The position numbers were made by a program, and so were the translations under genes. Shown here in pieces: positions 875 to 24,393 of a stretch of DNA of 64,000 nucleotides. Source of the DNA: Lachnospiraceae bacterium (GTDB lineage: Bacteria; Bacillota; Clostridia; Lachnospirales; Lachnospiraceae); assembly GCA_900771955.1 (NCBI GenBank), contig CAAGPW010000167.1, positions 15,951-79,950 of the forward strand. Reading direction: 5' to 3'. The notes below the pieces were generated by a model. The model was given only the letters and a program-made list of their open reading frames with translations, was not told the origin of the DNA and ran no database searches. Numbering within the stretch: position 1 is the first letter of the stretch; each line of letters starts with the position of its first letter.

Positions 875-1039
875 TCGAATTTTCTCTTTCTGTATTTTGG
901 TTTATATTATTATATCGGCAGGATTGGATCAGTGTATGAGAAGCTGTTCCAATTCTTTGTGTATTGCGTGAATCAGTGTATCATTTATAGAAATTGAATG
1001 CAATGGGCGCGTGTTAAATATTACATTATTTTGTCACTT

Positions 1040-1063
1040 AATGGATAATTCTTAGTTATCCAT
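1040..1063. promoter_or_regulatory. 24-bp perfect dyad aatggataattcttagttatccat, about 40 bp upstream of the GT2 start. Candidate operator or recombination site, copy 1.
   Basis: Seen directly. The half-sites atggataa and ttatccat are reverse complements around a 7-bp spacer. A near-identical copy (23/24) lies at 5401-5424 on the other strand. Confidence 0.4.
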
Positions 1064-1102
1064 CAGTTTTAGTACTAGAGGAAACGAGAGGAGAAATTGA
1101 TT

Positions 1103-2077
1103 ATGAAAATAAGTGTAATTATTACGACACACAATACGGAAAAGTATTTATTAAAATGCATGGATTCCATTATGAATCAAACTTTATCAGACATTGAAAT
1201 TATTATTGTAGATGATGCATCTACAGATGATACCCCCAAAACAGCTTCCCAACTGGCCTTGCGACACAAAAACATCAATTTTTTACCTCTATCTGCCAGT
1301 CTTGGTCCCGGGGGAGCAAGAAATAAAGCACTACAGCAGGCCACTGGAGAATACATATCTTTTATCGACAGCGATGACTGGATAGACTTAAATTATCTAG
1401 AGTTAATGTATAAGAAGGCACAAGAGGTAAATGCAGATATTGCTACTTGCAGTTTAATGCGTGAATACGATTATAATACAACTAATCCTATATATAAGTG
1501 TAAATATGATCAGACATATGTACTTTCTGGCGAAATCGCATTTCGTATTATGACAAACGAATATAATTATGGTATAAAATTTTTACCGTCAGCGTTGAAC
1601 AAAATATATCGGAAAACTTTTTTAACTGATAATTCATTAACATTCCCTGAACATATATTTTTTGAGGATCAGCCATTTTCATATAGCTGTACATTGGCTG
1701 CAAACAAAGTGGTCTGTGTTCCACATGTTGTTTATCACCATTATAAACGTTTAGGTTCTATTGTACAGTCATTTAGCAAAAAAAATATAGACGATATGAT
1801 GACTGCATATCAAATGATTAGAAATTACTTGAAAAGAAATAACGTTTATGAAAAATTCCGTTTTAACTATTATTCCTCTTTAGAACATTTTTATAATTTA
1901 ATTGTCCGACAAATATTTGAGTTTATCTCTGACGAAAATACTAAAAAAGATTATCTCAAATACTCTTTCAACCAATTAAAAAATGTTATTGATGTAGAAG
2001 AATATATCGATTTTTTATCTGCAGAAGAATTACGCAAACACATCCAGCCCAATATCACTGATACTACGATATATTAA
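1103..2077 (+). CDS. Family 2 glycosyltransferase (GT-A fold).
   Basis: N-terminus ISVIITTHNTEKYLLKCMDSIMNQTLSDIEIIIVDDASTDDT plus a DSDD (DxD) motif. RBS GAGGAGAA lies 7 nt upstream of the ATG at 1103 (the ORF track starts at the TTG at 1097). GC is very low (about 30%). Confidence 0.8.
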   Translation: MKISVIITTHNTEKYLLKCMDSIMNQTLSDIEIIIVDDASTDDTPKTASQLALRHKNINFLPLSASLGPGGARNKALQQATGEYISFIDSDDWIDLNYLELMYKKAQEVNADIATCSLMREYDYNTTNPIYKCKYDQTYVLSGEIAFRIMTNEYNYGIKFLPSALNKIYRKTFLTDNSLTFPEHIFFEDQPFSYSCTLAANKVVCVPHVVYHHYKRLGSIVQSFSKKNIDDMMTAYQMIRNYLKRNNVYEKFRFNYYSSLEHFYNLIVRQIFEFISDENTKKDYLKYSFNQLKNVIDVEEYIDFLSAEELRKHIQPNITDTTIY

Positions 2078-2088
2078 AAATAGTGTAT

Positions 2089-2123
2089 ATCCGCATGCTA
2101 TCGACTTAATATAGCATGCGGAT
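2089..2123. terminator. Bidirectional intrinsic terminator between the convergent GT2 and STAND genes.
   Basis: Perfect 13-bp stem atccgcatgctat / atagcatgcggat with a 9-nt loop. It has an A-rich 5' flank and a T-rich 3' flank. The stop codon of the minus-strand gene lies in the loop. Confidence 0.6.
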
Positions 2124-5100
2124 GTCTATATAGTATTTTTCTCTTTGAAGAGGATTTCCAATATAGAACTCCAAATTTTTTAGAGAGAATTCATATTGAC
2201 ATATGTATTTTTTATTATGTCTAATAATTGAAAGATATGTTTCCTTTTCAGAAAAAAATCCAGCTTCTCTTTCTAGTTCATTTAAAGCTGCCTCCTTTTT
2301 GTGATTATACAAGTGAACCAATGCTAAATAAGCTGCTTCAAAAGCAAGTTGGCGTGTTTTCATCGGTCTTTGTGTTTTCATATATTCCAATCTATATTGT
2401 TCACACAATGTTATTTCACCTTTGGATAACGCTAAAAGAGATGTCGCAAAAATGTGCCGGTTATAATCGTTGATAAAGTTTTCTTTTAAAATATTATTTG
2501 CTGCAATAACTTCACTAATATCAGAATCGTTGTTAACACAATCTAGGAATGTCACAGCGAACTTATACATATATTTGGTTTTGGTATCGCAATCCACCCT
2601 ATCTTCTACCATAGTATTAAATTTTCTAAGTAATTTTTCAGCCATCTGAAAATTATTTATCAGATTACATAAAAGCAATCTATACGTTGAAAACGGAATA
2701 TCCTTTTGGAAAAAATTCTCCTTTGCAGGAACTTTGTCCAAGCAATTAATTCCATTTTCGCTGTCAACAAACATCTTTACTGTATTTACAGCATATTTTA
2801 ACGATGGAAGGTCCCAATCAAACAGGATTATCCAATTATGTTGAATATTTGTTGGCATTTTATCAAAGCAAGCTATCTTTTCCAAAGCTTCCTGATATTT
2901 ATCATTCTCATAAAGTGAATTGATCATTTCCCATAATATGATGTAACGAATCTCCATCACAATATGCTCTGATACGAGCTTTGCCTCTGAATATAGTTTT
3001 TCAAATAAATCATATCCAGAAAAAGTGGTGCCTGCATTTGTATTTGCATATGTAAAATAAGCAAAAAATAGAAAATAATTTTGTATACTAATGTTCCTTT
3101 TAAACTGCTCTTTGGCAGATTCTGACAAAAAGATATTTTCCAAAATGTAATATATAGAATAATATTTTTGTTCAGCAAACAATTTTTGTATCTTGTTTAA
3201 TACATCCTCTATAGAGTCATCATCTCCACTTTTAAGTTCAAGTTGTAATTTTAAATGGTAAGCATCTTCAAAAGGAATATGTATGTCATTGTATGGTTTC
3301 AAAGTAAAATGGCTAATAAAAATCTCTCGATAGTATTCATGCCAACACACATAGAAATCATCATTATTCTTTCTTATCAATTCAGCATCTAATAGTAAAT
3401 CTAGCGTTTTTCTGGATTGTGGAATATCATGTAATAAGTTTCGTGATATTCCGGATCTGGTATAGTAAATACAAGAGCAAAGGGCTTCTGCATCCTCATT
3501 TTCTTTAAATATATTATTAAATTTAGATATTATTTCATTTTTTAAAAGTTCACAATGAACGAAAGATTGATATGCTAACTTAAAATCGCTGATACTTTTT
3601 ATGGAATCATTTAATGTTGTCAAATATTTCATAAAATACAATACTTCTATTACAGAACCAAAAAGTACTGTAATATGAGTTGTATCGAAATTAGTATACT
3701 TGTTAGTAAGAAGTGTGCGCATATCATCTTTTGTAACGGTTAACTCAACACTATCAAAAAATTGTCTTTTCCCAATTCTGTATTCTTCCAGTGAAATTTT
3801 CTGATGTGATGTCACAATACAAAAAATAGGATATTCACGACTTATTAATAGCCTAAGCATTTCCCTCAATACACCTTTATATTCTTTTGACAATTTTTGA
3901 ATATCATCCAAAATAATAATACGCGTATTTATGCATTTACTATCTAGGAAAATATCTCCCAATAGTTCTGGGTTTTGACTATATTTTACAAAATCATCAA
4001 TTTCCTTTGAGAAAAAAACAAAATCCCAAAATGTTTCTTTTAACTTCGGGAATTTTTTCCTCAAGTCATTTACATAGTTCAAATCTAAGTCTTCAAAATA
4101 TAAATAAGGAAAAAATAAATGAAATATAACTTTTTTGAGTACCTTTATGTCCTCTATTGTATCTCCTTTAAAAACATATATGTTACATAATATATCTTGT
4201 TTTTCTTCCATTAGCCTACTTATAAACAATTGTAGAACATATGATTTTCCGACCCCAGACTTTCCATATATTGAAGTTAATGAGAATATGCAATCAAGAT
4301 TTTTTCTGTAATCTAACAATTTACTGTATAACTGATCAACCACATTATCTTGGGAAGGAATGTCAAAAAACATATTTGCAGAATTTATAATTTTTATGGA
4401 TTGCGCCGGAATGATTTGTATTTTATTTTTATTTCTATTTTGTCCATTCTTATTTACTATTGAATATGTAATGGATATTGGCTGTAAAGTTTTATATTCA
4501 CCAAACGCATCCTTTTTTTGAATAGGTTCATATGTTAAATTCTCAGGTATAATGACATTAAAAATGAGGGGATTAATTCCTTTTTTTAGATGTAATTCCT
4601 TCGCATTTTCTGATATCAATTGAATATTATTCATGTCGGTCAATACGATATCTAAATCGCTTTGTACTGAAATTGAAAAACATATTTCATATTTAGCCCC
4701 AGTATATATAGTAGATAAGGGTTCTTGAAACAAATTATTTCCAAGGGTATAAAATGAAAGTTCTTCTATGCAATTAAATAGTGGTCTTTCTAATTTGTTA
4801 TATGTCTCTAAAGAACAAACAAACTTAGATTTGAAAAAAGCCTCTCCCTTATCCAAAATCCAATTTTCAAGGTGACTTTTGGTATAAAATTTCACCTCCC
4901 TGCAGCTATCAGAACATAATAGTGCTTCACGTATGTCAGCAATTGTTTTTGAAGCTATTTCTAAATTAGTCACAAAAATAATTTTTGAAATACCACGAGA
5001 TAAAATCGCACTTACAATAGTTGCATCCAGGCGATATCTACTTATTATTTTATTTTCAGAAGTATCAGTGGAATATTTAGCTTCCATCCACCAGACATCC

Positions 5101-5312
5101 ACATTGTTTGCATATCCTACAAATACTGCAAACTCTTGTTTTGGTTTTCCCAAAACTTCTCTGGAAAGAATTGCGTCATGATTTCTGTCTCTGCTCTTTT
5201 TTGTCTGTGCCCATTGGGAGCCATTTTGCGGCTCTTTTTCCGCAACAAACTCAACAGCCAATTCTTCAAATCCTTTGAAACCATTTATCAATTTTTCCCA
5301 TTCAATATTCAT
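2106..5312 (-). CDS. STAND-type P-loop NTPase (NACHT/NB-ARC-like) with a possible N-terminal PD-(D/E)xK (Mrr-like) domain and a long C-terminal helical repeat region. Candidate Avs-like antiphage protein.
   Basis: Walker A IYGKSGVGKSYVLQLF at about aa 350. Walker B RIIILDDIQKL at about aa 465. N-terminal ...NHDAIL...FAVFVGYANNVDVWWMEAKY fits a D...ExK nuclease core. About 600 aa of C-terminal alpha-helical repeats. Very AT-rich. Confidence 0.65.
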   Translation of the reverse strand: MNIEWEKLINGFKGFEELAVEFVAEKEPQNGSQWAQTKKSRDRNHDAILSREVLGKPKQEFAVFVGYANNVDVWWMEAKYSTDTSENKIISRYRLDATIVSAILSRGISKIIFVTNLEIASKTIADIREALLCSDSCREVKFYTKSHLENWILDKGEAFFKSKFVCSLETYNKLERPLFNCIEELSFYTLGNNLFQEPLSTIYTGAKYEICFSISVQSDLDIVLTDMNNIQLISENAKELHLKKGINPLIFNVIIPENLTYEPIQKKDAFGEYKTLQPISITYSIVNKNGQNRNKNKIQIIPAQSIKIINSANMFFDIPSQDNVVDQLYSKLLDYRKNLDCIFSLTSIYGKSGVGKSYVLQLFISRLMEEKQDILCNIYVFKGDTIEDIKVLKKVIFHLFFPYLYFEDLDLNYVNDLRKKFPKLKETFWDFVFFSKEIDDFVKYSQNPELLGDIFLDSKCINTRIIILDDIQKLSKEYKGVLREMLRLLISREYPIFCIVTSHQKISLEEYRIGKRQFFDSVELTVTKDDMRTLLTNKYTNFDTTHITVLFGSVIEVLYFMKYLTTLNDSIKSISDFKLAYQSFVHCELLKNEIISKFNNIFKENEDAEALCSCIYYTRSGISRNLLHDIPQSRKTLDLLLDAELIRKNNDDFYVCWHEYYREIFISHFTLKPYNDIHIPFEDAYHLKLQLELKSGDDDSIEDVLNKIQKLFAEQKYYSIYYILENIFLSESAKEQFKRNISIQNYFLFFAYFTYANTNAGTTFSGYDLFEKLYSEAKLVSEHIVMEIRYIILWEMINSLYENDKYQEALEKIACFDKMPTNIQHNWIILFDWDLPSLKYAVNTVKMFVDSENGINCLDKVPAKENFFQKDIPFSTYRLLLCNLINNFQMAEKLLRKFNTMVEDRVDCDTKTKYMYKFAVTFLDCVNNDSDISEVIAANNILKENFINDYNRHIFATSLLALSKGEITLCEQYRLEYMKTQRPMKTRQLAFEAAYLALVHLYNHKKEAALNELEREAGFFSEKETYLSIIRHNKKYICQYEFSLKNLEFYIGNPLQREKYYIDIRMLY

Positions 5313-5400
5313 TCTATATACATACTCCCATTTCCATAAACAATTGAAAAAATACGACTGATATTACGGGATTATCCATTAACGTTCTCAAAGTGAAGTA

Positions 5401-5424
5401 ACGGATAACTAAGAATTATCCATT
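5401..5424. promoter_or_regulatory. Second copy of the 24-bp dyad (aatggataattcttagttatccgt on the minus strand), about 90 bp upstream of the STAND gene start. An extra half-site attatccat lies at 5371-5379.
   Basis: Seen directly. 23/24 identical to the 1040-1063 copy. The AT-rich segment ends at about this position. Confidence 0.4.
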
Positions 5425-5427
5425 ATT

Positions 5428-7230
5428 TTATACTAATTTCGCCGCTAAATTCCGTAAAAATCTTTTCTGTTCCGTCATTTGCTCCCGGGCTATCACTTCA
5501 TCTGTTTTTCTTAACAGTTGACGCCCCTGCTCCAGCAGTTCCGTATTTTCCTGTTCGGCTCCCACTACTCTATAATAAATCACTTGATACAGCAGAGAAT
5601 TGATAACGCCATGCAGTGAAGAACCTTCCATATAATTATTTTTTGCCTGCAGAATATATCTGAGCGCTTCTTCCTTCCGGTCATAAATAAGCAGTTCTAT
5701 AACTCCCAGATTAATATAAGCCACATTGATCTCATCCAGTTCCACTGTATACTGGGCTCCCGCTTCACTAAAGCGCTTCCATAGATCCCATAGATCCTGC
5801 AGTTTTTTTCTATATAAAACTTTGAAAACCTGAAAAAACATACGGCTGCTATATACATATACCGTCAAAATCATTTTTCCAATATGATTTAAAGGAGTAA
5901 TGCAGTCCCAGCCTACGATTTCTTTCGAATCCAACGCCTTAAGCATGTGTTTCCGGTATTTATAGAATTGCAGCCACTCTGTAACTGCCCATCCGTATTT
6001 CTTATCTGCAACCCATTTGTCGGATCTGGCCAGCGCGGTTTTGTTGATATGTACATAAAAATGCTGGATATTCTCCTGCCGGTTTGCTCTGACACAGTTC
6101 TGAAAACCATAGTACCCAAGATATTGATTTGTGCCCTCTGGATCCATCAGGGAGAGTAACCGTTTTGTCCATCCCTCGTCGAATACCTCCTCAGGATTTA
6201 TGCCCAGCAGAAAAAGTGTGGCTAATATGCTTGCCTCTCTGAATTGTTCCGGGTATGGGCGGATGCTTTTCTCCAATCTATCTACCCAGCAAAATTTTTC
6301 TTCCTCTTTTATGTCCTCTTTAGCAATTCTCACAGAGAACAGTTCTGACAATTTCTCAACAAAATGTTCCGTTTGGGCCTTTACCGTATAGTTCTCCGCA
6401 AAACAACCTGTCAGCGTTTTCTCATTACTCCATGGATCCATAATCTCCATCTTATCGTCAAATCCATGCCGCACATAGATTCCCATGGAGGTATTGTTTC
6501 TGGAAATGCTTTGAAAAAAAGGATTTACATCTAAATAATCCCCTCCGCCATATCCTAAAAAAACGAAGCAATGTTTCTTCTGTATCCATCCTCTCAGTGT
6601 CTCCACAAATTGTTGTTTCAAAGGAATCTTTACTGTGGAAAGTGTTGCTCCTATTTTGGCAATATCCGTAGCGATCCCGTGAATATAGTATAGCTGTCCG
6701 CTCCCTGCGAAATCGCTTCGAAAGGTATAGATCCCTTCTCTTTGTTCCTCGTACAGTTCATAACCATCTTCAAAATACAGATTCTTGTACGCCTTCTGGA
6801 TACATATATCATAGTTTGTCGTAACTATATTGGCTCCCAAATGCAGCAGTGCCGCCAACATATAATGACAATAATTCGGTGGTGTCTCCTGAAAACTCTC
6901 CAGACCGTGAATTACCGAATACTGATTTTGTAATTCATCTTTTTCGAAGATGCGGAATCCTTCCAGCACCGTCTCCAGTCTGGGAATTCCCGACAAATAC
7001 ACATTTTCATCCATGATCGTCCGAAAGGTCTCCTGAGACTTCCGCCAGTTTTGCAATATCCTTTCCGTATATTTTATCCCACAGGCCTGCTCCAACAGCG
7101 TTTTCGTAAGTTCATTTCCCAACGGCAAACAGGACGGAGTATTGTTGTCAATTCCGGCTCCCACCCAGAAGACCAGTCCCTCCGTCCCATAGCTACTTAT
7201 TTTTTCAAACAATTCTTTTATCATAAGCAT
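5428..7230 (-). CDS. SIR2_2-family (SIR2-like, ThsA-type NADase fold) domain protein with a roughly 330-aa C-terminal helical domain. Candidate defense effector.
   Basis: Hallmark motifs in order: LVFWVGAGID...LPLGNEL, IVTTNYDICIQ, YYIHG, FVFLGYGGGDYLD. GC is intermediate (about 43%). Confidence 0.65.
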   Translation of the reverse strand: MLMIKELFEKISSYGTEGLVFWVGAGIDNNTPSCLPLGNELTKTLLEQACGIKYTERILQNWRKSQETFRTIMDENVYLSGIPRLETVLEGFRIFEKDELQNQYSVIHGLESFQETPPNYCHYMLAALLHLGANIVTTNYDICIQKAYKNLYFEDGYELYEEQREGIYTFRSDFAGSGQLYYIHGIATDIAKIGATLSTVKIPLKQQFVETLRGWIQKKHCFVFLGYGGGDYLDVNPFFQSISRNNTSMGIYVRHGFDDKMEIMDPWSNEKTLTGCFAENYTVKAQTEHFVEKLSELFSVRIAKEDIKEEEKFCWVDRLEKSIRPYPEQFREASILATLFLLGINPEEVFDEGWTKRLLSLMDPEGTNQYLGYYGFQNCVRANRQENIQHFYVHINKTALARSDKWVADKKYGWAVTEWLQFYKYRKHMLKALDSKEIVGWDCITPLNHIGKMILTVYVYSSRMFFQVFKVLYRKKLQDLWDLWKRFSEAGAQYTVELDEINVAYINLGVIELLIYDRKEEALRYILQAKNNYMEGSSLHGVINSLLYQVIYYRVVGAEQENTELLEQGRQLLRKTDEVIAREQMTEQKRFLRNLAAKLV

Positions 7231-7302: not shown

Positions 7303-8937
7303 CTATTTCTTTCGTTTTATCGAAATTCGTGGTTTCTCTTCATCTTTCTCTACGCTCAGCCCGTCTCTGGCGCCATAATAAAAGGCAATCCACATCAACG
7401 GAATCGTGATCTGCCCCAGGGTTACCGTCATTTCCGCCATTCCAAAGCATGCAATGGCGATTAGGAATACGGCACACTCCCATCGACCCTTACGGCACAT
7501 TCCCAACGCCTTAATCAGACTGTACAAATACATGCCCAGGAACAAAATTCCCACCGGGATTCCATAGCTGTAGGCCATCTGGAGAAACATATTGTGTGCA
7601 TGCTCATAATAGACGTCTTCCGTCAGGTAGAAGCCAAGAAAGAACCGGTTATGCCCTCTCATATTCAGATGATGCAAGAAATACGTGTAAATAATTTTCC
7701 TTGCATCCGTAGATGAATGCAGCGGATCCAGTCCCTCGATGTTAAATGGATTCTCCGGACTTTCGCCCGCACTCGCCTCCTGCGCATGTACCTTCATACC
7801 GCCCAGCAGATCCTGCATTTTCTCCATCATAACATCCGTATCGATTCCAACGATCTCCAGAATCCGGTTCACATCATGTTCCATTACCTCTTCAAATGAA
7901 ACGTATTTCCAGCTATTCCAAGGGTCAAAGGAGCACACGCTGACACCTTCCACGTATTCCCCCTCAAACCAGATCGGATGGTGCAAAATCGTTGGGAGAT
8001 AGCGGATGCAGCCGTAGACCACCGGAAAAGTGATCGTAATGCAAAGAATCATTGCCACACCATGGATCACCAGCCTGTAAAAAGATTTACAGCAAAAAAT
8101 ATCATACGCTACCATCAGAAAGAACCCCGTAACGATCACGCCGAGCAGCGGAGCTCGTCCACCGGTATAGACAATAAAGCTGACCATTCCCGCCGACATC
8201 AAAAAATAGAAACCCCGGATCCACCATTTTTTCTTCTGTTCCACGGCCTTCCTCCACCGGAGTAAAAAGGCACAAAATACAATCATATAAAATAATCCGT
8301 TCTGCGTGGTTCCGGTGTACATGCCCCGATACCGCACGGCATCGTACGGCCGGAATCCAAAGGCCAGGATCTGCTGAATGAAAAACCATACGATAAGTCC
8401 GATGGTCATTCCATTGAATAAATCCTCCGTTCGCTCTTCCGGTATCCCGATCAGGTAAAGTCCGCCGAAGACCAGCAGATACCATAGCGGCAAAATACCG
8501 CCATACACCGATATCTGCATCAGAAAGAACAGCAACACCATACACCAGAAAAACGGCTGTCGCATCTTCTTCCGGATCGCCATTTTCTCGTTCTTACGCT
8601 CTCTGACCATATAGATGATCAGATAACTCCACACCGTCAGATTCAGTACTCCAGAGATCCACTGCCCCGTGTATTTCCAGCAGAACTTTCCCACCACACA
8701 TGCCGCCACTGTCAGCAGTGCGCATACCGGAGTCCAGCGTAAATACACCTTCTCCCGAAATTTGCTCAGATCCATTCCAGGAAGCAGCATAAATGCAATG
8801 ACTACCCCCGTCAGATTTGCAAATATCATCTGTATTTGTCCCAGCGCGCTTCCCCGGCGCTGATCGATCCAGCCCAATACCAGAAAACATACCATGTACC
8901 AGAGAATGTATTTATTCGTCTTCAACCATTGTTTCAT
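7303..8937 (-). CDS. O-antigen ligase/Wzy_C-family polytopic membrane protein with a periplasmic loop domain.
   Basis: About 10 TM helices, with the segment FLQMAYSYGIPVGILFLGMYLYS and a large soluble loop. RBS AAAGGAG lies upstream of the ATG at 8937 (MKQWLK...). The ORF track starts further upstream at 9021. Confidence 0.55.
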   Translation of the reverse strand: MKQWLKTNKYILWYMVCFLVLGWIDQRRGSALGQIQMIFANLTGVVIAFMLLPGMDLSKFREKVYLRWTPVCALLTVAACVVGKFCWKYTGQWISGVLNLTVWSYLIIYMVRERKNEKMAIRKKMRQPFFWCMVLLFFLMQISVYGGILPLWYLLVFGGLYLIGIPEERTEDLFNGMTIGLIVWFFIQQILAFGFRPYDAVRYRGMYTGTTQNGLFYMIVFCAFLLRWRKAVEQKKKWWIRGFYFLMSAGMVSFIVYTGGRAPLLGVIVTGFFLMVAYDIFCCKSFYRLVIHGVAMILCITITFPVVYGCIRYLPTILHHPIWFEGEYVEGVSVCSFDPWNSWKYVSFEEVMEHDVNRILEIVGIDTDVMMEKMQDLLGGMKVHAQEASAGESPENPFNIEGLDPLHSSTDARKIIYTYFLHHLNMRGHNRFFLGFYLTEDVYYEHAHNMFLQMAYSYGIPVGILFLGMYLYSLIKALGMCRKGRWECAVFLIAIACFGMAEMTVTLGQITIPLMWIAFYYGARDGLSVEKDEEKPRISIKRKK

Positions 8938-9095
8938 GTTACAATGCTCCTTTAGTGCCACTTTGAGTTTCAATGTAGAATACATATTTATGTTATATGT
9001 AAGAAATCCTTTTGAAAACATCTTGTTTTTTTATTTTTTTTTGCTATTCTTTTATAAGTAGGCAATAGTATGGTGTCACGGGAGATTAATATACC

Positions 9096-12691: not shown

Positions 12692-12706
12692 ATAAAAATA
12701 ATGGCA

Positions 12707-12728
12707 CCGATTTGCCCCAGCAAATCGA
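12707..12728. terminator. Hairpin terminator downstream of the metalloprotease gene.
   Basis: ccgatttgc/gcaaatcga stem followed by a T-run on the minus strand. Confidence 0.4.
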
Positions 12729-12761
12729 TGCCTTCATCCCTATATATAATCCTCTTCCTTA

Positions 12762-15245
12762 CTATCCCCTATCACTTTTATCCCGCATTTTCCACTTTAC
12801 CCATGCAATCCAGCCGGCAATAACAACGCACAGGCCAATCCCGGCGACTACCAGCCACACAATACCTCCCGGCTGTTCTTCCGCCGCTTGTCCGGCGGGT
12901 TGTGAGGTGTCCTGTTTGTGGCCTATCACGATAGTATCCTCCGGTCTCTCTGTCGCCTTTGGCTCTTCAGATGCTGTTTCCGCTGGTTCCTTCGTTGCCG
13001 CTGGCCCTTTTGTCGTACTGGGAGTCTCTGTGGCCGCTGGCATTTTCATCGCGCTAGGTGTCTCCGTACTCGTTGGTGCTTTTGTCGCACTAGGTGTCTC
13101 CGTTGCTGCAGGTTCTTTCGTCGCACTAGGTGTCTCCGTTGCTGCAGGCGCTTTCGTCGCACTGGGCGTCTCCGTTGCTGCAGGCGCCTTCGTCGCACTG
13201 GGCGTCTCCGTTGCTGCAGGCGCTTTCGTCGCACTGGGCGTCTCTGTGGCCGCTGGCTCGTTTGTTACAGCAGGAACCCCCGTTGTCTCCGGTTCTTTCG
13301 TTGTACCGGGCGCTTCCGTCACCGCTGGAGCCTCTGTGGCCGTCGGTTCTTTCGTCTCTGTCGGGTTTTCCGCAGATCTCGTTACGGTGAATTCTGCTTC
13401 GGCAACTCCACCTGCAGATACGATACCAACAACATGCTTTCCATCGGCTAATGTCGCAATACATTCCGGTAACAAATGAACAATAATGCTCCCGGATTCC
13501 ACAGTATAATCCGCATCACGGACAAGTTCTTTCCCGTCCAGTTCTACGCGGATAAAATCATCAAATGCTGCATCCGACCGAAAAGTAGCTGTTTCGGCAT
13601 TTGCCGCATCAATCTGAGCACCCTCGCCCTCAATAATACTTGGCGCTGTTTTGGGAATAGATGTCCCCTTCTGTAATTCCTTGCCGCAGTCCTTACAGTA
13701 CAAGTCACCGGTATACCCGTTTTCCGTACTGTTTGGTTCCTTTCTGTCTCTCAGCTCCGTATTTTTATGATTGTCCGGATCCACATCCCCGTAGGCCTGC
13801 TGGCACACGGAGCAGATGGCTCTGGCGATGCAGGTAGCCTCTCCACCAGTATGAACATGCTCTTCTCCGATTCCCTTTATTTCAAAAGTCAGCACATTAT
13901 CCGCAATCTCCGTTACTGTAATGCTGATCTTCTCTGTGATTAATATATCTTCACCGGCCGCCAGTGCCGCATCATTTTTCGTGGCATGCTCTCCACCCAG
14001 AACCTCATAATTCCATCTGGGAGCACTGAAATTCATATTGCTGGGGAATTTTGTGTTGCTATCTACCAAATAGCATACCAGCCCTGATTTCAGAAAAATT
14101 GCATCCACCCGGGATTCGTTGGCCTTATACAGATTCTTTATCTGCGAATCATAATTATTTCCTGTCTCCGTGAAATTTCTGTATTCAAGATACAGTGTCT
14201 TGTCTTTTCCCGGAACATCCATCTTATACCCTGTAGCAAGAGAATTACCGCCGGTTCCCAATGCTGCCAGTCTATAATTTCCATCCGCTGCAAGCACAGG
14301 CAGATCCTCAGCATTGATCCATCCCAATGCCTCCTGTTCTTTCACCGAAATAAACTGCGGTACCGGAGAGATCGGCTTTGCCATAACCGACATAAAGTAT
14401 ACCGGAGAAGCATTCGCGGAATTATACAGATCCTTCAGTCCCATAATATGTCCTGTTTCATGGATCACTGTTCCCAGAGATATGAGGACATTTCCCGTTT
14501 TATCCTTATACAAATAACCATTCGTATCTCCGTCTCCCTTTGCATAGGAGTTCGTCAGTTGGACATAGTTTGCGCTTGTCAGCGTGACAGAGCCTGTATT
14601 TATTGTGACATAGTTCGCATAATCCTTATAATTCCACAGTGGCGAAGCCCAGCTCACCGAAATATTGCTTTGCGTCGTATTTTTATAAATAATTGTGATA
14701 GCATCTATAATGCCGTCTCCATTCTTATCCAGATCCGCATAGCTGTATTCCCGGGTTCCATCATAATTGGTGATCCTGTTTCCAGCAGCTATCGCATCAT
14801 TAATGGCCTTGGACCAGTCTAGTTTTAAGTCGTACATACGGCCATATTGTTCGACATTGCCCTGATATCCGAGGGTATTATCCGCACTATACTCCGCATA
14901 ATACCCTCTGGGATGAGACAGTGTCAATGAACCGCCTCCCGCAAACAGGTATACACTGTTCATGCGTAATTTTCCCGATGATACCGACTGGAAATAATCA
15001 GCCACATTATAACCCGCTGTATTGTAGGAATTGTCCGTAATCTTACGCACGGTGGTGTCTTCATATACATTATCTATAAATTCGTCTTCCCCGGAAAACT
15101 TTACAAAGACGATCAGGTTGGTAAAATTGCTTTCTGTCGAAACCGCTGTCGGCTCAACCTCCGCCGCCCGACTTATAAATGGTTCATTAAAAAATGTATT
15201 TGCTGCCAATACAAGCAGCAGTATCTTACAAAGTATCTTTTTCAT
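12762..15245 (-). CDS. Secreted zinc metalloprotease (HExxH zincin) with a Thr/Pro/Ala-rich repeat stalk and a C-terminal transmembrane anchor.
   Basis: Signal peptide MKKILCKILLLVLAANTF. Active-site motif VIHETGHIMGLKDLY. Multiple copies of PSATKAPAATET. C-terminal hydrophobic segment IVWLVVAGIGLCVVIAGWIAWV followed by KWKMRDK. Confidence 0.65.
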   Translation of the reverse strand: MKKILCKILLLVLAANTFFNEPFISRAAEVEPTAVSTESNFTNLIVFVKFSGEDEFIDNVYEDTTVRKITDNSYNTAGYNVADYFQSVSSGKLRMNSVYLFAGGGSLTLSHPRGYYAEYSADNTLGYQGNVEQYGRMYDLKLDWSKAINDAIAAGNRITNYDGTREYSYADLDKNGDGIIDAITIIYKNTTQSNISVSWASPLWNYKDYANYVTINTGSVTLTSANYVQLTNSYAKGDGDTNGYLYKDKTGNVLISLGTVIHETGHIMGLKDLYNSANASPVYFMSVMAKPISPVPQFISVKEQEALGWINAEDLPVLAADGNYRLAALGTGGNSLATGYKMDVPGKDKTLYLEYRNFTETGNNYDSQIKNLYKANESRVDAIFLKSGLVCYLVDSNTKFPSNMNFSAPRWNYEVLGGEHATKNDAALAAGEDILITEKISITVTEIADNVLTFEIKGIGEEHVHTGGEATCIARAICSVCQQAYGDVDPDNHKNTELRDRKEPNSTENGYTGDLYCKDCGKELQKGTSIPKTAPSIIEGEGAQIDAANAETATFRSDAAFDDFIRVELDGKELVRDADYTVESGSIIVHLLPECIATLADGKHVVGIVSAGGVAEAEFTVTRSAENPTETKEPTATEAPAVTEAPGTTKEPETTGVPAVTNEPAATETPSATKAPAATETPSATKAPAATETPSATKAPAATETPSATKEPAATETPSATKAPTSTETPSAMKMPAATETPSTTKGPAATKEPAETASEEPKATERPEDTIVIGHKQDTSQPAGQAAEEQPGGIVWLVVAGIGLCVVIAGWIAWVKWKMRDKSDRG
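13030..13270. repeat. Tandem in-frame 36-bp coding repeats (about 6 copies) encoding the TP-rich linker of the metalloprotease.
   Basis: Repeating unit ctaggtgtctccgttgctgcaggcgctttcgtcgca is seen directly. Confidence 0.7.
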
Positions 15246-24080: not shown

Positions 24081-24393
24081 TTTCGTAAGCGCCAAATATT
24101 CCCGTGGCTAGCCAAAAACCCCCTCTAAAAAATACACTTTTCATTGCCTGCGCCATACCTTTGCCACCAGATGTATTGCTCATGGACTCAATTATAAGGT
24201 CGTCAGCGAACTTCTGGGACACAGCACGATCAATATTACTTTGAATATGTATGTTCATCCACAGATGTCTGAAAAATAAAAGTGCATTGAAACGATATAT
24301 ATGGAATAGATGGAAATATACAAATATATGGAAAAATATGGTATATTATGAAAAAACTGTTGTCGAAATAAAGTCGCAATTTTCTGTCAAATA

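Follow-up and report, generated by a model that had tools for sequence, protein, structure and literature searches.

Analysis of a 64,000-nucleotide stretch of a Lachnospiraceae contig (CAAGPW010000167.1; hereafter the window) revealed a stand-alone gene on the minus strand, here called SIR2-TPR, whose product joins an N-terminal domain of the SIR2_2/SIRim superfamily to a C-terminal domain resembling tetratricopeptide repeats (TPR). We propose that SIR2-TPR is probably a self-contained, single-protein abortive-infection sensor-effector representing an uncharacterised SIR2_2 (SIRim) family. The gene is independent of its downstream neighbour, a STAND nucleoside triphosphatase (NTPase) gene, which lies with a GT2 glycosyltransferase gene in a cassette of a naturally inverting and exchangeable class. 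The parts of the SIR2-TPR gene on which the assignment is based are listed below, with residues numbered along a 600-amino acid (aa) translation unless the 598-aa product is named, in which numbers are 2 lower.

5428..7224, minus strand: SIR2-TPR gene, 598 aa from the ATG at 7224, stop codon at 5428-5430
6346..7188, minus strand: N-terminal SIR2_2 (SIRim-type) Rossmann domain, about residues 15-295, predicted NADase effector
7147..7161, minus strand: GAGID, residues 24-28, Rossmann glycine loop binding nicotinamide adenine dinucleotide (NAD)
6808..6822, minus strand: TTNYD, residues 137-141, with Asn139 (Asn137 in the 598-aa numbering) predicted catalytic
6676..6684, minus strand: IHG, residues 183-185, with His184 (His182 in the 598-aa numbering) predicted catalytic
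6538..6555, minus strand: GYGGGD, residues 226-231, β-strand and loop closing the NAD pocket
5431..6303, minus strand: all-α TPR-like solenoid, about residues 310-600, predicted sensor/regulatory domain

SIR2-TPR combines a SIR2_2 head with a TPR-like tail

Profile, motif and fold features all place SIR2-TPR in the SIR2_2/SIRim superfamily. The Pfam SIR2_2 model (PF13289) matched residues 134-247 with 31.2 bits against a gathering threshold of 24.5, confirming the class named in an earlier note on this DNA; the model spans only the core of the domain, and in the predicted structure the full SIR2 fold extends over about residues 15-295. The four signature blocks that the note had read, GAGID, TTNYD, IHG and GYGGGD, were found in that order, and only 11 of 20,000 shuffles of the protein gave any one of the three that are 5-6 residues long. 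A second IHG, at residues 107-109, is non-catalytic. Alignment of 31 family sequences showed that both predicted catalytic residues are conserved, with the first four residues of TTNYD and the IHG His invariant in 31 of 31; the G, G and D of GAGID and the G and Y of GYGGGD were likewise invariant, and the A and I of GAGID nearly so. Searches of the PDB gave no match by phmmer and only weak core matches with a profile, to FAM118B and the SIR2 protein of SPARSA, in both of which TTNFD aligns with TTNYD and HG with IHG. The SIR2 fold of the protein has no zinc-binding module, and NADase activity is predicted for it.

The C-terminal region, previously described as an uncharacterised helical domain, is confidently predicted to form an all-α TPR-like solenoid: in the AlphaFold2 model (mean predicted local distance difference test score 89, predicted template modelling score 0.86) the C-terminal ~300 residues are all-helical. 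Structural matches of this domain extended equally well to generic TPR scaffolds, among them TONSOKU, 14-3-3 and LGN. Mean pairwise identity within the family is 44% for the SIR2 head and 30% for the TPR-like tail, the pattern expected of an effector fused to a fast-evolving sensor. TPR-fused SIR2_2 proteins are mentioned as existing in a published sirtuin tree.

The open reading frame (ORF) that the earlier note placed at 5428-7230 is real and lies on the minus strand (600 codons, from the ORF list and its translation), but its start is likely the second ATG, at 7224, and not the upstream ATG at 7230, because the exact 598-aa product is recorded by gene callers in public assemblies and no 600-aa version is on record there. 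The spacing of the AGGA Shine-Dalgarno sequence was also judged to suit the ATG at 7224 better than that at 7230. The GC content of the gene, which had been given as about 43% and as different from that of the adjoining cassette, is 41.7%, near the window mean of 44.0%; that of the STAND gene is 29.5%.

Directly upstream of SIR2-TPR, with a gap of 72 bp, lies a gene for a 572-aa multi-pass membrane protein (7303-9021, minus strand) that has no match in Pfam, NCBIfam or PADLOC. The protein is 544 aa in most relatives and 544-572 aa in the backbone of this species, and it is kept beside SIR2 only within that backbone, being absent beside other family members.

A sparse family in variable, defence-rich or mobile contexts

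Homologues of SIR2-TPR are sparse and patchy, amounting to 30 clusters at 90% identity among 5.8 billion protein clusters. These relatives are about 530-625 aa and align over their full length at 27-37% identity, except for one 97% near-copy, and a PF13289 match was precomputed for 29 of the 30 clusters. A profile search of a 50%-identity representative library returned 183 representatives at E<=1e-30, most of about 560-640 aa. Contigs related to the locus in the window came from human gut metagenomes and from metagenome-assembled genomes of Lachnospiraceae, Roseburia and Mediterraneibacter. On plasmids, only distant matches to the N-terminal domain were found, in Ralstonia megaplasmids. A phage-borne origin was considered and rejected, with no relatives in IMG/VR; one faecal contig labelled 'UNVERIFIED Bacteriophage sp.' (MT836594), a putative phage or mobile-element contig, carries a homologue beside a replication module of SSB, clamp and helicase.

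SIR2-TPR is a stand-alone gene: across 13 distinct contexts of family members, no neighbour or partner gene is shared, either upstream or downstream. The contexts are variable, defence-rich or mobile, and PADLOC identified Hachiman (Ham), Thoeris and RADAR genes near homologues. For example, HamA and a HamB fragment lie immediately downstream of the homologue in L004, amid serine recombinases and a transposase. ThsA-Macro and ThsB lie about 4.5 kb upstream of the homologue in L010, and a ThsB-like TIR protein is encoded near that in L008, so that TIR or Thoeris genes are found less than 10 kb from a homologue in both loci. Evidence of mobility includes integrases and serine recombinases in L001, L004 and L011, an integrase and an HTH gene near the homologues of L001-L003, and a conjugative element (ICE) with MobL and TraG in L011. 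Homologues in L008 and L018 adjoin polysaccharide-synthesis genes. For SIRim-clade SIR2 proteins of bacteria, a 12-fold enrichment of defence systems in the gene neighbourhood has been reported (bioRxiv 10.1101/2024.09.18.613514).

RADAR-type genes were found within a few kb of three homologues, over the following spans.

L013, 13661-17767: RdrA, identified by PADLOC
L016, 11918-17192: RdrB, identified by PADLOC, with a 909-aa gene in the RdrA position
L015, 887-3514: RdrB-like A_deaminase-type protein of ~875 aa, identified by Pfam alone

The 909-aa gene of L016 has no PADLOC match and is 27% identical to RdrA of L013. Since the three homologues are only 29-41% identical to one another, the associations are independent. 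The RADAR-type genes are themselves divergent, and their proximity may reflect a repeated association or simply shared defence islands.

In L013, a ThsA-like SIR2-SLOG gene lies two genes upstream of the homologue. The intervening gene, which follows the SIR2-SLOG gene, encodes a 174-aa protein of unknown function, and the homologue (P0026) starts 4 bp before its end. This three-gene arrangement (L013, 6000-9767) may be an operon, unlike the stand-alone layout elsewhere.

The neighbouring STAND gene lies in an exchangeable cassette

The features on the downstream side of SIR2-TPR are as follows.

1039..5425: STAND+GT2 cassette, 4.4 kb, 30% GC, two convergent genes, bounded by inverted repeats
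2106-5312, minus strand: STAND gene, within the cassette
1097-2077, plus strand: GT2 glycosyltransferase gene, within the cassette
5396..5425: inverted-repeat arm beside SIR2, core ATGGATAA-TTCTTAG-TTATCC, boundary of backbone and cassette

The arrangement of the two genes had suggested that SIR2-TPR might be the effector of the adjacent STAND NTPase, in a split Avs5-like two-gene system in which STAND senses and SIR2 kills. As first described, the genes lie tail-to-head on the same strand; the gap is 115 bp, with no terminator-like site between them, and fused SIR2-STAND proteins (Avs5) exist that structurally resemble the SIR2 domain found here. Nevertheless, STAND and GT2 form a discrete cassette whose near repeat arm starts 2 bases after the SIR2 stop codon, and this cassette occurs elsewhere without SIR2. 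In L020 and L021, a copy 99.4% identical to window positions 1040-5421 (blastn) is present in another backbone behind a different upstream gene, with similarity stopping at the same point, and STANDs 71% and 68% identical in protein sequence keep GT2 while an integrase (L022) or an AAA_21 pair (L024) takes the position of SIR2. Conversely, SIR2 genes of 94-98% identity precede either a cassette of a methyltransferase gene and a 328-aa gene or another P-loop gene. The proposed co-occurrence check by tblastn found a STAND relative in 0 of 26 SIR2-bearing loci and a SIR2 relative in 0 of 5 STAND-bearing loci. In addition, the STAND protein has a conserved N-terminal D...ExK nuclease-like motif, suggesting that it does not lack an effector. 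We consider a partnership of the two genes highly improbable and close to refuted; SIR2-TPR is independent of its STAND neighbour.

The cassette is bounded by a pair of 30-nt inverted repeats (I2; 1039-1068 and 5396-5425) that are 90% complementary with a quasi-palindromic core, and the core sequence ATGGATAATTCTTAGTTATCC occurs exactly twice in the window where 0 occurrences are expected. Similarity to the cassettes of L020-L023 ends at 5421-5423, and L025, which is 97.7% identical to the window across SIR2, diverges at 5399 and continues into a different P-loop gene, a third cassette type. The coincidence of these break points with the 30-nt repeat marks the boundary between the backbone and an exchangeable cassette. 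L026 and L027 carry SIR2 genes of the same 90%-identity cluster as that in the window, and L026 shares the window backbone on the two sides of the cassette (94% and 88% DNA identity), but in both the site holds a 1.78-kb cassette of a methyltransferase gene and a 328-aa gene. These two loci differ only in the orientation of the 1.78-kb segment flanked by the repeats and are otherwise 100% identical, indicating that the segment inverts in nature; its content also varies from strain to strain. The cassette class at this site is thus naturally inverting and exchangeable, and the earlier suggestion that the neighbour was acquired independently at a hotspot is borne out by the repeat-bounded, exchangeable nature of the STAND+GT2 cassette and by its GC content (30%, against 41.7% for SIR2). 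Since the only match in the window to the recombinase family associated with such cassettes is a fragment-like one of 41 aa (24136-24258), the enzyme acting on the repeats was not located there.

The STAND family comprises at least 166 clusters, all of about 1030-1075 aa, in which the N-terminal ~130 residues contain the invariant series D42/N44/D46 ... W74-W75-M76-E77-A78-K79 ... R92 ... D96. This D...ExK motif looks like that of PD-(D/E)xK nucleases, suggesting from sequence that the protein is an Avs-like nuclease-NTPase-sensor. Searches with STAND in PADLOC and Pfam gave nothing beyond weak P-loop matches.

Two further features were noted at the cassette. A third, partial copy of the repeat arm, TAATGGATAATCC, lies at 5369-5381 on the minus strand, 15 nt inside the SIR2-proximal repeat and before the STAND start codon, and may be an accessory recombinase-binding half-site. 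Beyond the far end, the minus strand has a lipoprotein-like ORF (MKNKKILQATSTLALLLPLALTACG...) at 1-830, which begins near position 830 and is truncated by the left edge of the window; this ORF is the conserved backbone flank on that side and is 88% identical in L026.

Comparison with known SIR2 systems

SIR2-TPR falls outside the ThsA, DSR1/DSR2, Avs5, SIR2-HerA and SPARSA families. It is closest in logic to DSR1/DSR2, of which it resembles a short version: each is a single gene encoding an N-terminal SIR2 NADase-type domain with catalytic Asn and His and an all-α solenoid C-terminal region presumed to be the sensor, and the same abortive-infection logic is proposed. DSR2, whose logic the mechanism proposed below follows (PMC11850899), was the top Foldseek match in the PDB (E 1.4e-4), with a global TM-score of only 0.26-0.28. 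It is nevertheless a separate family. DSR2 chains have 932-995 residues and Dsr1 profiles ~1250 positions, compared to ~600 aa for SIR2-TPR; no Dsr1 model of PADLOC matched SIR2-TPR at E<=0.1, whereas a control SIR2 protein from L013 did match Dsr1 models; and DSR2 was beyond the reach of the PDB profile search. The C-terminal domain of SIR2-TPR is a compact TPR-like superhelix, whereas that of DSR2 consists of MID plus CTD.

The description of the protein as 'ThsA-type' does not hold in the Thoeris sense. SIR2-TPR has a TPR-like C-terminal domain in place of a SLOG/STALD or Macro domain and was matched by no PADLOC ThsA model at the same threshold, and the flanking genes, encoding the membrane protein, STAND and GT2, gave no ThsB or other TIR match in Pfam, PADLOC or NCBIfam. 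Avs5 carries SIR2 and a STAND NTPase in one polypeptide; SIR2-TPR (598 aa) contains neither a P-loop nor an NTPase domain, and the STAND gene beside it belongs to a cassette that moves independently and is not paired with the family at the 26 and 5 loci surveyed. SIR2-HerA (Nezha) differs in that no HerA neighbour is present here, the DUF87 match of STAND falling below threshold (E 0.035; 14.6 bits, cut-off 23.2 bits). FAM118B/SIRim and SPARSA SIR2-APAZ, the only PDB entries reached by sequence profile (E 0.001-0.008, over the TTN[YF]D...HG...LG core), share with SIR2-TPR the SIR2_2 class and the absence of a zinc module, but the likeness is limited to ~100 core residues and neither has the TPR-like C-terminal domain. 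For SPARSA in particular, the C-terminal domain of SIR2-TPR is TPR-like and not APAZ, and no PIWI/Argonaute match was found in the neighbouring genes.

Proposed function and alternatives

We propose that, in the resting state, the N-terminal SIR2 NAD+ hydrolase would be held inactive, and that the C-terminal TPR-like solenoid would recognise a protein or peptide of phage origin. This binding, which is probably coupled to oligomer formation as for other defence sirtuins, would switch the NADase on, NAD+ would collapse, and the infected cell would stop supporting phage growth. We infer the anti-phage role, the NADase activity, the trigger and the activation mechanism from the domain content and contexts described above. 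Several findings weigh against this proposal. No PADLOC model of any kind matched the protein at E<=0.1 and an NCBIfam scan gave no match, so that guilt by association in just 13 contexts, taken without a formal background statistic, is the ground for assigning a defence role. No SIR2-TPR relative was found in the IMG/VR viral contigs, and a literature search for a 'SIR2-TPR' system and related terms returned nothing specific and no experiment on a family member. In this species, moreover, the gene has a GC content close to that of the genome and sits in a conserved backbone beside the membrane protein and cell-envelope genes, a locus that is no obvious defence island. TPR domains also have many non-immune roles.

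These features of the local setting are what would be expected if SIR2-TPR were instead a housekeeping or regulatory sirtuin-like enzyme (a protein ADP-ribosyltransferase, a deacylase or an NAD-sensing regulator) tied to envelope or polysaccharide genes and without an immune role, and the polysaccharide-synthesis genes beside the homologues of L008 and L018 point the same way. However, neither the membrane protein nor the polysaccharide genes are conserved beside other family members, the family is sparse and patchy, its members often sit on mobile elements or have Thoeris, Hachiman or RADAR genes as neighbours, and the SIR2_2 type lacks the zinc module that canonical sirtuins need for deacetylation (FAM118 paper), making a housekeeping function unlikely in our estimation. 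A further alternative retains NADase activity but makes the protein a shared downstream effector and not the primary sensor, with the TPR domain binding a small peptide or nucleotide-type second messenger produced by a system encoded in trans. Consistent with this, the 174-aa gene downstream of the ThsA-like SIR2-SLOG gene in L013 shares 4 bp with the start of the homologue, and in both L008 and L010 there are TIR or Thoeris genes less than 10 kb from the homologue. We nonetheless regard activation by such a signal as quite improbable, given that no signal-producing gene is conserved beside the family, that SIR2-TPR has neither a TIR nor a cyclase gene next to it in the window, and that the TPR-like domain matches generic TPR scaffolds equally well.

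If the sensor-effector proposal is confirmed, SIR2-TPR would represent a compact family of ~600-aa SIR2 sensor-effectors in human-gut Firmicutes that is missed by PADLOC and NCBIfam, and would provide a small, tractable model for the gating of a defence sirtuin by a TPR sensor. Separating SIR2 from STAND also keeps a false 'SIR2+STAND two-gene system' out of catalogues, and the boundary analysis that separates them brings to light an invertible cassette of two genes that is widespread and has a tyrosine recombinase family of its own.

A wider class of invertible cassettes

Of the features at this locus, the invertible cassette system is the more unusual one. Its core site, GGATAATTYTTAGTTATCC, is widespread: metagenome contigs scanned for it contained it in at least 119 stretches (L031-L149), many of them labelled human gut. 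An XerC/D-like tyrosine recombinase of one family, whose members are 44-52% identical to one another, was encoded within the fetched stretch in 66 of the 119 listed, usually some tens of bases away from the site; the SIR2 gene was found in 0 of the 119. Among the matches listed, 13 loci have a pair of sites that, as in the window, are arranged plus then minus, and in 12 of these the sites bound two convergent genes of lower GC than their flanks, the remaining locus (L133) having almost no flank for comparison.

In each sampled cassette, one gene is of immune or sensor type and the other encodes an enzyme that modifies small molecules, a role taken in the window cassette by GT2. The sensor-type genes encode AAA_16/AAA_22 NTPases (720-826 aa), a TIR protein, a pentapeptide protein and a TPR protein, and the enzymes include Ddl-like ATP-grasp ligases, an aminotransferase, an SHMT-like protein, a kinase-like P-loop protein and a methyltransferase. 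The pairing of NTPase or TIR immune-type genes with such enzymes suggests phase-variable immunity, or a trade-off between immunity and surface, in gut bacteria. No description of this class of cassette or element was found in the literature.

A combined model is possible, which we put forward tentatively and with considerable doubt. SIR2-TPR would constitute a new family of abortive-infection proteins that act alone in gut Firmicutes and use an RRNPP-like TPR pocket to sense a protein or peptide encoded by a phage, and the SIR2 gene would at the same time mark the fixed side of a toggle driven by a recombinase. Transcripts running out of SIR2 would enter the inverted-repeat-bounded cassette of convergent genes, and DNA inversion would decide between expression of an immune-type sensor (the nuclease-STAND) and of a surface- or metabolite-modifying enzyme (GT2).

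Repeats were also sought downstream of SIR2 homologues in six other loci (L001, L004, L007, L008, L010 and L016), and a related repeat-bounded cassette was found in L010 only. It comprises a methyltransferase gene and a 332-aa gene (12694-14488) between 25-nt repeats that are 96% complementary with the core GGATAAT-AGAGG-ATTATCC, and it lies 2.9 kb downstream of the homologue and not adjacent to it. In L001 (2440-9827), a convergent pair of pentapeptide and aminotransferase genes, together with an integrase of the recombinase family described above, lies 2 kb upstream of the SIR2 homologue.

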